Source: Malassezia furfur (taxonomy: Eukaryota). Taken from it: a stretch of 64,000 nucleotides of DNA. A program made the translations under genes and the position numbers. The stretch is from NCBI GenBank assembly GCA_052055015.1, contig JBQJIT010000001.1; one strand, given 5' to 3'. Below are positions 9,543-10,782 of this stretch, one piece after another. The notes below the pieces were generated by a model. It searched no databases. It worked only from the letters and a program-made list of their open reading frames with translations, and was not told the DNA's origin. Each line of letters opens with the position of its first letter. The stretch's first letter is position 1.

Positions 9543-9550
9543 TATATAAA
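9543..9550 (+). promoter_or_regulatory. TATA box (TATATAAA) of small secreted peptide gene A
   Basis: Canonical TATA sequence 50 nt upstream of the ATG at 9601 in an otherwise GC-rich context. Confidence 0.7.
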
Positions 9551-9600
9551 GAAAGGTCGTTGGTTAACCACGCCCCTCATCCACCCCCGGCTTCCCCCCC

Positions 9601-9928
9601 ATGAAGTTCTATCCGCTCATTTTCTGCCTCGCCCTCGTGCTCGGCACGCTGTGTACGTGTTCCATTAACACCCAGGCGCTGCCACCACCGACGTGGCCAT
9701 CAAAAACGACGCCACACTCGTGGCCCGCCAGTCCCAGTCCCAAGGCGGCTGCACGGGCGACATGATCTTGCATGAGTACGTCGTTGCACTGACCTCAGAA
9801 TCGACGTAGCACTCATGGCTGTCCTTCCAATCCTAACTCCCATTCTTGCGTCCGCAGGGATTCCCAACGTCACGCCCTTCGTCCACCTGATTATCCAGTT
9901 CCTCGAGTCCCTCCATGCGTTCTGCTAA
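9601..9928 (+). CDS. Small secreted pre-pro-peptide A (93 aa, 3 exons), hydrophobic mature part
   Basis: Exons 9601-9652, 9676-9775, 9799-9928; introns GTACGT...TTAAC..CCCAG and GTACGT...CTGAC.TCAG (23 nt each). Product MKFYPLIFCLALVLGTLCAATTDVAIKNDATLVARQSQSQGGCTGDMILHEIDVALMAVLPILTPILASAGIPNVTPFVHLIIQFLESLHAFC. Confidence 0.82.
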
Positions 9929-10425
9929 ACCCCATAGTCTTGCCATTCTCATTCTGAACATCAAATTGTATGTGGAGAAAAGGTCCAATTTTGGCGGGCC
10001 ACCGGGGTACATTGGCGAGCGTCACGACGTAGCAGCACATCTCAAAGATGTTAGGAAAGACTTTTGTGGGCGTACACATGCGGCAATCCCATGTACTGTG
10101 CATACCTGCTTTTCATCGTGATGACTCGTGCCTTGCTTGACTGCGTGGTGCGCTGCATGCACCAAACGTGTCTTCCCGGCAACTCCGTACCGGCGGTCTG
10201 CGGAGACCCGGGAGCTATGTACCGGGAAAAGGGTATAGGCTCACCTCTTGCCACCTCTTGTCACCTCTAAGCGAGTGGTCCTGGGTCCTAGCACCCAGGG
10301 AATGTCACCACCTGATTCGCGTGCACAGACCATCTCGATGTCTTCGGTGCGTACGGATCGTTGCGCTGCATCCTCAAAGCACAGACCCCGGTCCATACAA
10401 GGAGATGGCACATGCGCATTGTCCA

Positions 10426-10431
10426 TATATA
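10426..10431 (+). promoter_or_regulatory. TATA-like box (TATATA) of small secreted peptide gene B
   Basis: CATATATAG about 35 nt upstream of the ATG at 10467. Confidence 0.55.
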
Positions 10432-10466
10432 GCCGACGCGCCCATACACTTCGTCACTGAAACACT

Positions 10467-10782
10467 ATGAACAAGTTCCTCGTCCTGACGTTTGCGCTAT
10501 GCCTCCTGGTAGCTTTGGGTATGTGTCACGCTCATCCAGTCGAGGCACACACTGCCCAGGTTGTGCCAGCCCTGAGCCGGTTGCGCCGCGATACGGACCG
10601 CTGCCAAGGCTCGAAGGAGATGCAGAAGTGCGTGGTTGCGCTAACTCAGTCTCGAGCGCGTTCTCGAGCAGACGTCGACGAAGCTTAAAAAGCACCTGTC
10701 TGGCCGTAAGGACGAAAAGCAGGTCGACAACACAATGAAACAGTTCTACGCCCTGCTTGCCAAGGTCAAGGAGGTGTGCTGA
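10467..10782 (+). CDS. Small secreted pre-pro-peptide B (90 aa, 3 exons), charged amphipathic mature part
   Basis: Exons 10467-10518, 10540-10627, 10650-10782; introns GTATGT...CTCAT.CAG (21 nt) and GTGCGT...CTAAC.CAG (22 nt). Product MNKFLVLTFALCLLVALVEAHTAQVVPALSRLRRDTDRCQGSKEMQNLERVLEQTSTKLKKHLSGRKDEKQVDNTMKQFYALLAKVKEVC. Confidence 0.82.

Follow-up and report, generated by a model that had tools for sequence, protein, structure and literature searches.

What is encoded in the short spacer between a PDK1/PKH-type protein kinase gene and a DUF4112 gene in Malassezia, and what could the products be for? This question arises from a stretch of 64,000 nucleotides (64 kb) filed under Malassezia furfur (GenBank assembly GCA_052055015.1, contig JBQJIT010000001.1), to which we refer as the window. 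An initial annotation, made from the sequence by itself, had placed two tandem genes for secreted, cysteine-bracketed pro-peptides in this spacer, here called A and B, and had suggested that the peptides act as a pair. We found that A and B are two real genes with conserved products and a conserved tandem arrangement, and that their orthologues in M. furfur undergo strong, specific and parallel induction by the mating pathway. On balance we consider it likely that A and B are expressed, ancient tandem paralogues that encode secreted pro-proteins of a mating or hyphal programme, with a proposed role at surfaces or lipids.

Two spliced genes and their orthologues

Both gene models were re-derived by script from the letters of the 64-kb window, and all structural statements of the initial annotation (two three-exon genes, their introns, phases and cysteine spacing) were reproduced. 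Gene A, on the + strand, consists of exons at 9601–9652, 9676–9775 and 9799–9928, separated by two introns of 23 nucleotides (nt) each (9653–9675 and 9776–9798). Its coding sequence of 282 nt translates to 93 amino acids and a stop codon. Gene B lies on the same strand, with exons at 10467–10518, 10540–10627 and 10650–10782, introns at 10519–10539 (21 nt) and 10628–10649 (22 nt), and a coding sequence of 273 nt that translates to 90 amino acids and a stop codon. The introns of 21–23 nt occupy matching positions in the two genes. Exon 1 comprises 17 codons plus one base and codes for the core of the signal peptide in A and for the signal peptide in B; intron 1 follows in phase 1, directly after the 17 whole codons. 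Exon 2 specifies the pro-region (up to LVAR in A and RLRR in B), the first cysteine past the signal and the start of helix 1. Intron 2, in phase 2, falls in the 8th codon past this cysteine and in A splits a Glu codon. From the split codon, exon 3 runs for 42 residues in A and 43 in B to a cysteine that is the C-terminal residue of the protein, followed by the stop codon. This last exon is hydrophobic in A, where it contains a conserved LP-x-L-x-P-I-L motif, and amphipathic and charge-rich in B.

The splice signals are similar throughout. Gene A has the donor GTACGT twice, branch-like words TTAAC and CTGAC, and CAG as the 3' end of both introns. Across all four introns the donor reads GTACGT, GTATGT or GTGCGT, and a CTAAC-like word stands shortly 5' of CAG in three of them (TTAAC, CTGAC, CTAAC), with just CTCAT in intron 1 of B. 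The unspliced frame of A stops after 54 amino acids. In B, intron 1 preserves the reading frame and contains no stop codon; if it were retained, the signal peptide would still be encoded, with seven additional residues. Unspliced read-through open reading frames (ORFs) of B occur in protein collections from other strains (P0006 and P0011). The ORF track of the window holds just fragments of A and B, and the description of the genes as hidden is correct for such a track only, since GenBank includes their orthologues as annotated genes. Such short introns are usual in the genus: those of the flanking genes in the window measure 22, 22, 22 and 25 nt, and the curated M. sympodialis annotation, as reported in PMC5389616, has a mean intron of 30 base pairs with 99% of introns supported by RNA sequencing (RNA-seq). 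The pair illustrates how genes with introns of 21–23 nt escape ORF scans.

To exon 3 of A, a protein search (10 candidates) assigned a single protein, P0002, which is GLX27_000747 of M. furfur (98% over exon 3). The corresponding query with B (7 candidates) identified P0003, which is M. furfur GLX27_000746 (93%), and P0004, which is MBRA1_000627 of M. brasiliensis (91%). GLX27_000747 and GLX27_000746 are adjacent and annotated as hypothetical proteins. At full length, 85 of 94 aligned columns are identical between A and P0002, and 82 of 90 between B and either P0003 or P0004; therefore, the deposited models use the same splice sites. A second spliced variant of A with 94 amino acids (P0014) is present on two assembled public-run contigs, the longest of 2,474 nt. 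With a contiguous ORF that lacks both introns, these contigs would most simply represent complementary DNA.

An exhaustive HMMER search with P0003 against 1.84 billion representatives (E <= 0.001) returned five proteins, namely the query itself, the read-through ORF P0006 from an assembled public-run contig, P0007 (M. japonica MJAP1_000345, 44%), P0008 (M. vespertilionis MVES1_002938, 33%) and P0009, a partial ORF from an assembled contig (45%). Every full-length B sequence has a signal peptide, RR or RK four residues before the first cysteine, Gly two residues past it, and the terminal cysteine; the distant orthologues P0007 and P0008 retain both cysteines, the basic site and the length. The cysteine pair is conserved in the A sequences as well. 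So far, the family has been seen only in named Malassezia species and on further contigs. P0004 carries the UniRef name "Eosinophil differentiation factor" (interleukin-5), which looks like an artefact of automatic naming: there was no IL5 row in Pfam at E <= 10 and no interleukin-5 chain among the seven PDB sequences with E <= 10.

Expression of the pair in M. furfur

Coelho et al. (2023, PMC10410736) engineered M. furfur CBS14141 to contain a compatible pheromone/receptor pair (Aon Boff) or, in addition, compatible bE/bW ('solo'). According to the supplementary data of this study, the transcript of the A orthologue GLX27_000747 increased over wild type with log2 fold changes of 3.54 in Aon Boff and 5.81 in 'solo' (adjusted p 3e-32 to 1e-88), and that of the B orthologue GLX27_000746 with 3.19 and 5.35 (adjusted p 2e-20 to 5e-59). 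This corresponds to an induction of about 10-fold with pheromone/receptor signalling and about 40–56-fold when bE/bW is active too. The counts for A were 187, 152 and 136 in wild type, 1955, 2193 and 825 in Aon Boff, and 11256, 7921 and 7388 in 'solo'; those for B were 214, 229 and 207, then 2505, 2122 and 797, and finally 11135, 8394 and 7285 (PMC10410736). Over these nine RNA-seq samples, the log counts of A and B correlate with r = 0.997, and the A/B ratios stay between 0.66 and 1.04. The neighbours 000744, 000745 and 000749 are flat in the same data, and GLX27_000748 is up about 1.8-fold in 'solo' only (PMC10410736). The co-expression that the initial annotation had named as a check is thus borne out, as the orthologues are expressed and co-induced; this is established for a close relative and not for the window organism itself.

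The supplement of the same study lists the pair among its most strongly induced genes (sheet A, rows 11 and 14). At the top of this list stand the introduced genes MFA1 and PRA1, and MFA2, SAP2, two secreted lipases and MSB2 come next. Both genes bear the authors' remark "secreted (predicted), Malassezia specific" with SignalP(1-20), and the main-text section on up-regulated genes leaves the pair out (PMC10410736). For its annotation, the study used funannotate with M. sympodialis proteins as a guide, together with "RNA-seq where available" (PMC10410736). A search of the full-text literature for five locus tags produced no papers, as the tags occur only in supplements. The initial annotation had overlooked this main functional clue, that the pair is part of a hyphal programme induced by mating type. 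Joint induction by the mating-type pathways therefore places A and B in a mating or hyphal secretory programme together with secreted lipases and the protease SAP2.

Syntenic copies and the descent of the pair

Scanning metagenomes with a profile of B gave 168 pattern matches, none of which was confirmed. With the DUF4112 neighbour as query, we obtained 41 loci, four of which also contain the kinase gene (L001–L004). Three of these (L002, L003 and L004) do not differ in the stretch compared (locus positions 2700–3800), and by tblastn and profile search all three hold the pair in the order kinase, A-like, B-like, DUF4112 on one strand, which bears out the idea of syntenic copies between these two neighbours. 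The kinase of L004 matches Pfam Pkinase and PH_3. Its A-like gene (2789–2943 and 2968–3097) encodes 94 amino acids and was detected by tblastn with A of the window (E 7e-12, 37% over 99 columns); the B-like gene (3442–3578 and 3602–3746) encodes 93 amino acids and was detected with B of M. japonica (E 1e-3). Each has one intron (24 and 23 nt, respectively) in phase 2. That of the B-like gene lies in the 8th codon past the cysteine, the same position and phase as intron 2 of B. In the A-like gene the intron falls in the homologous Glu codon, again in the same phase, which is the 9th codon here owing to an insertion of one residue. The B-like intron would have GAG as its 3' end, which is unusual for an acceptor; no other acceptor preserves the frame. 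When the window and the 41 loci were searched with an exon-3 core profile, only the A, B, A-like and B-like ORFs matched; there was no further paralogue, and the next best E was 0.95.

Between the window and L004, the segment from cysteine to cysteine is better kept than the leader (48% versus 23% identity in A, 29% versus 21% in B), which fits with the core being the functional product. That A and B are chance ORFs in an intergenic spacer from which no protein is made would agree with their short coding exons and with the lack of matches to Pfam or to solved structures. We give this explanation practically no weight against products whose conservation extends over at least four named species and a distant syntenic relative, a core conserved better than its leader, and thousands of RNA-seq counts on both M. 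furfur orthologues.

Are A and B related to each other? Plain BLASTP between the two found nothing, and only 10 of 54 aligned core columns are identical (19%). By hhalign, A and B were matched with P = 0.013, or 0.0028 after the L004 copies had been added, with the first cysteine in register both times. We then compared the cores without gaps, anchored on the two cysteines (28 + 20 positions), with 20,000 composition-preserving shuffles of the A core per B core. The score of A against five B cores was reached by 0.095, 0.085, 0.095, 0.08 and 0.005% of the shuffles (p 5e-5 to 1e-3), a significance that is overstated to the extent that shuffling destroys helical periodicity. If the codon of intron 2 is taken as an anchor independent of sequence similarity, exon 3 aligns ungapped through helix 1 with a common pattern of hydrophobic residues at +1, +5, +12 and +16. 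Proline at +10 occurs in both A lineages and in B of M. japonica, M. vespertilionis and L004, and is missing from B of the window, M. furfur and M. brasiliensis. Intron 2 has its phase and codon in common among A, B, A-like and B-like genes.

Adjacency, strand, length, the positions of cysteines and of intron 2, and the anchored similarity together make common descent of A and B probable. The organism of L004 has both types, and the duplication therefore predates its split from the window lineage. An old duplication had also been inferred in the initial annotation from identical architecture with almost no residue identity; the low identity is correct, and yet the anchored similarity exceeds what shuffled sequences give.

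Four points speak against our interpretation at the level of genes and descent. First, the splicing of the window genes relies on the annotation of relatives and on one spliced form of 94 amino acids (P0014, which lacks intron 1 of A along with intron 2) from assembled public-run contigs. Second, the similarity between A and B is weak, with hhalign probabilities of only 3–11%. Third, intron 1 is missing from both L004 genes. Its presence in both genes of the window hence demands that it was either lost twice in the L004 lineage or gained twice in that of the window. Fourth, the syntenic locus L001 has no detectable A or B in its spacer of 1.4 kb (2361–3802, 44% G+C), which contains no ORF with features of the family; here the pair has either been lost or has diverged past recognition.

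The two genes probably each have their own TATA promoter. A TATA-like box precedes A at 9543–9551 on the + strand (pattern at 9543/9545, -58 from the start codon) and B at 10426–10432 (-41), in agreement with the initial annotation. The pattern TATA[AT]A[AGT] occurs at three independent places on the + strand of the 64 kb (9543/9545, 10426 and 56659), which have an overall G+C content of 60.5%. The L004 genes have such boxes 33–35 nt 5' of their start codons (TATAAAA at -33 of the A-like and TATAAAG at -35 of the B-like gene). In M. furfur, the joint, roughly 1:1 induction is driven by pheromone/receptor signalling and is stronger with the bE/bW heterodimer. The third TATA-like word in the window (56659–56665) overlies the 3' end region of a – strand ORF (56515–57867), with no small secreted gene seen beside it.

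The word ACAAGG is found exactly 70 nt 5' of both start codons, at 9531–9536 for A (in – strand sense) and at 10397–10402 for B (forward), and ACAAAGG is found 77 nt 5' of the B-like gene of L004 (3365–3371). These words may resemble the HMG-box core known from pheromone response elements; six-letter words such as ACAAGG can recur by chance. The number of 8-mers common to the upstream regions of A and B is about that of a rough chance estimate.

The neighbours of the pair are readily recognized. Upstream on the + strand lies the PDK1/PKH-type protein kinase gene (5678–9461; Pfam Pkinase, E 1.4e-48), the last intron of which was read from the sequence as 9338–9359 (22 nt). GLX27_000748, which adjoins the A orthologue, is presumably the M. 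furfur copy of this kinase. The kinase stop codon (9459–9461) is just 82 nt 5' of the TATA box of A, and transcripts of the two genes may overlap. Downstream on the same strand begins the DUF4112 gene (10920–11413; Pfam DUF4112, E 8.1e-15), which has several introns of 22–25 nt.

Predicted products, their possible role and known systems

Each gene would give rise to a pre-pro-protein of about 90 residues with a signal peptide of about 20 residues, a short pro-piece with a basic site, and a core of 51–56 residues that starts with cysteine and ends with the C-terminal cysteine. Hydrophobic N-termini and the SignalP(1-20) entries for both M. furfur orthologues in Dataset S2 (PMC10410736) agree with the signal peptides assigned earlier. 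A basic site stands 2–7 residues before the first cysteine in every A and B sequence examined. It is RR or RK in all six full-length B sequences and a single Arg (L-x-x-R) in both A lineages. As to the Kex2-type processing put forward in the initial annotation, cleavage of the pro-piece at this site is likely for B, with its dibasic motif, and doubtful for A. If A is cut after LVAR, the mature peptide would have 58 residues, no Lys or Arg and a grand average of hydropathy (GRAVY) of +0.87; B cut after RLRR would have 56 residues, including 9 Lys, 3 Arg, 5 Glu and 4 Asp, and a GRAVY of -1.08. These recomputed lengths and compositions agree with those given before.

AlphaFold2 models were built from shallow alignments of six rows. 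With low to moderate confidence, they predict the helical hairpin that had been proposed for both proteins, with helices at 43–64 and 69–89 in B (block-mean predicted local distance difference test, pLDDT, 70–79 over residues 41–90) and at 46–71 and 76–92 in A (block-mean pLDDT 48–68 over residues 41–94). In both models the first cysteine is located just before helix 1 and the last one just after helix 2, at the open end of the hairpin. An internal disulfide is therefore geometrically natural, and a bond between the two cysteines may close the helix-turn-helix of each protein.

The chemical split between A and B is retained in the window and in the relatives. The A cores of the window and of L004 have net charges of -4 and -3 and contain a stretch of 19 residues with a mean Kyte–Doolittle hydropathy of 2.16 and 2.14, respectively, which is interrupted by two conserved prolines. 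All six B cores are hydrophilic and amphipathic with net charges from 0 to +6, and strong cationic charge is therefore not a trait of the family. It appears that A turned very hydrophobic and acidic while B became hydrophilic and amphipathic, and that they diverged long ago, since both types persist in a distant relative. As the most likely role, we propose that both products work outside the cell as proteins of mating filaments, either on the cell surface or at an interface with lipids. A would seek out lipids or surfaces, and B would be its soluble relative. Such a role would be comparable to that of the Kex2-processed Ustilago repellents.

Some considerations limit this proposal. Secretion, cleavage of the pro-piece and the disulfide are predictions, and confidence in the structural models is low to moderate, with a mean pLDDT of 65 (B) and 55 (A). 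The basic site of A is monobasic, hence weak for Kex2. The hydrophobic stretch of A could act as a membrane anchor instead, and the role at a surface or lipid interface is suggested by analogy and by co-induction with lipases.

The possibility of such an anchor leads to another view, in which A is a small single-pass membrane protein with its N-terminal cysteine on the lumenal or extracellular side and a short cytosolic tail, and B is a soluble secreted ligand or protector of it. The hydropathy of the stretch in both the window and L004 would suit this arrangement, and the structural neighbours of the A orthologue in the ESM Atlas are membrane proteins (TM-scores 0.35–0.53). However, two conserved prolines lie in the middle of the stretch (LP-x-L-x-P), and on translocon hydrophobicity scales such prolines disfavour stable insertion. 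The fold and the cysteine positions that A has in common with soluble B favour the same closed hairpin for both, and A is listed as predicted secreted in Dataset S2 (PMC10410736). We regard a membrane-spanning A as improbable.

As a secreted hairpin, A might also be a toxin that damages the membranes of host cells or of competing microbes during filamentous growth, in the manner of candidalysin, with B being functionally unrelated. In favour of this idea, A is predicted as a helical, hydrophobic peptide that is preceded by a signal peptide and a basic site, and it is co-induced with hypha-associated hydrolases. Most membrane-lytic peptides, however, are cationic. The A core is acidic (net charge -3 to -4, no Lys or Arg) and resembles Ece1 neither in sequence nor in repeat architecture, so that we deem a toxin of this kind very improbable, more so than a membrane anchor.

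A closer cooperation between the two proteins, as in the two-component idea of the initial annotation, would imply that A and B form a complex, for example a four-helix bundle or a heterodimer with cysteine bridges at both ends, and that they act only together as an amphiphile or membrane-active pair. The membrane-active, carrier or immunity functions suggested in that annotation are conjectural. Several features are in line with this idea: both types stand side by side in a distant relative, their chemistries are complementary and the split is conserved, transcript counts stay near 1:1 across a 50-fold range of induction, and the cysteines are at equivalent positions in both proteins. Furthermore, a lone two-helix hairpin would possess a very small hydrophobic core. 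On the other hand, adjacency and co-regulation are expected of tandem paralogues anyway, and among named species annotated A is found in M. furfur only, in contrast to B from four, with A having been searched by word index only. Prediction of a complex between the mature forms, run with no controls, gave a score of 0.02 and a mark of 0.34, which speaks neither for nor against binding. An obligate pair is in our judgement unlikely, although less so than the two preceding alternatives. A bolder version, to which we assign a somewhat smaller chance, has A and B as the halves of one extracellular agent of the mating or hyphal stage, in which a greasy acidic hairpin and a soluble one, possibly bridged through cysteines at both ends, form a two-faced amphiphile. 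Such an agent would cover the filament or interact with lipids and membranes of the host or with sebum lipids. It would be an alternative to hydrophobins and repellents that is made of two chains, and as a fungal two-peptide system it would be of a new kind. Our preferred reading remains that of two paralogous secreted proteins at a surface or lipid interface.

Searches for a known family returned no match. Pfam gave only sub-threshold chance rows for P0002–P0004 at E <= 10 (best E 0.016; cut-offs 23–30 bits) and no family for the exon-3 pieces of A from the window and L004 at E <= 0.01. A profile search of PDB sequences with the B alignment ended at a best E of 0.12, and Foldseek with the B model found no PDB match at E <= 0.001 (best E 2.3). 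In a wide VIA-align search no chain reached Z 8 (best 7.7), and the 932 chains with Z of at least 5 are generic helical hairpins; therefore, this search neither names nor excludes a family. Feature matches in the ESM Atlas reached only 0.76–0.77, below the noise level of the tool. The statement that no family is recognized accordingly stands as far as Pfam, PDB and fold matches are concerned, and needs to be amended in that the orthologues are annotated and flagged in a supplement as secreted, Malassezia specific and up-regulated.

Individual candidates were set aside on specific grounds. HsbA/Mp1p cell-wall galactomannoprotein (PF12296) has no Pfam row at E <= 10 for P0002, P0003 or P0004, and the Mp1p domain 6j6f_B (Z 7.0, root-mean-square deviation 4.4, 80 residues aligned) is tied with dozens of unrelated helical chains, a tie that speaks neither for nor against the bundle fold. 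Class I and II hydrophobins show a pattern of eight cysteines, and the mature parts of A and B have two. Alpha-hairpinins are helix-loop-helix peptides with two disulfides (CX3C ... CX3C), and here a single cysteine pair sits at the extreme ends of the core. Lipopeptide pheromone precursors of basidiomycetes end in a CaaX box and have no signal peptide; in A and B the terminal residue is cysteine and a signal peptide is present.

What was known already are the annotated hypothetical proteins and their rows in a supplement. Paralogy, architecture, synteny beyond the M. furfur group and the division into a hydrophobic and a hydrophilic partner did not appear in any full text covered by our search, which excluded the supplements of other papers. 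The present analysis adds an ancient syntenic paralogue pair, a testable architecture and a conserved chemical split. It turns two hypothetical proteins into concrete candidates for factors of the filament surface or the host interface, and the pair should provide easy reporter genes for the mating programme. To our knowledge, sexual development has never been observed in Malassezia, and hyphal growth of these fungi is linked to skin disease.

How do A and B compare with established systems? Class IIb bacteriocins and the KP6 alpha/beta killer toxin also consist of two small secreted peptides that are adjacent or co-encoded and co-expressed and could act together, the resemblance behind the initial annotation; A and B are likewise adjacent and co-expressed. 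The bacteriocins are bacterial and have double-glycine leaders, dedicated transporters and immunity genes, and the KP6 subunits derive from one precursor and adopt alpha/beta folds that contain several disulfides. The A/B locus has none of these features; its neighbours are a kinase and a DUF4112 gene, and the leaders are eukaryotic signal peptides. HsbA-Mp1p proteins are secreted, helical, fungal and bind lipids or hydrophobic surfaces, and the leads towards them are weak (ESM 0.76, Z 7.0). They form a five-helix bundle of about 150 residues, in contrast to the two helices of about 25 residues in the A/B core. Ece1 of Candida albicans, the precursor of candidalysin (compare PMC11323794), has a signal peptide, is cut at basic sites into a product that is hydrophobic and alpha-helical, and is expressed in association with hyphae, much as is predicted for our pair. 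Unlike A, which is acidic and monobasic, Ece1 is a polyprotein with KR sites and candidalysin has no cysteine bracket; there is no homology.

Rep1 of Ustilago maydis comes from the same subphylum as Malassezia. Its expression is tied to the filamentous, mating-dependent stage. Rep1 has no sequence similarity to A or B, and its single gene encodes 11 repeat peptides that form amyloid-like fibrils, in contrast to two genes with a single cysteine-bracketed hairpin core each. A and B have one core and one basic site per gene and no repeated units as in the repellents or Ece1. The likeness would lie in the role: Rep1 is a secreted pre-pro-protein that is cut, within the secretory pathway, into small amphipathic peptides coating aerial hyphae (PMC3133707), and A and B of M. 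furfur, like Rep1, are expressed under the mating pathway, as the RNA-seq data show (PMC10410736).

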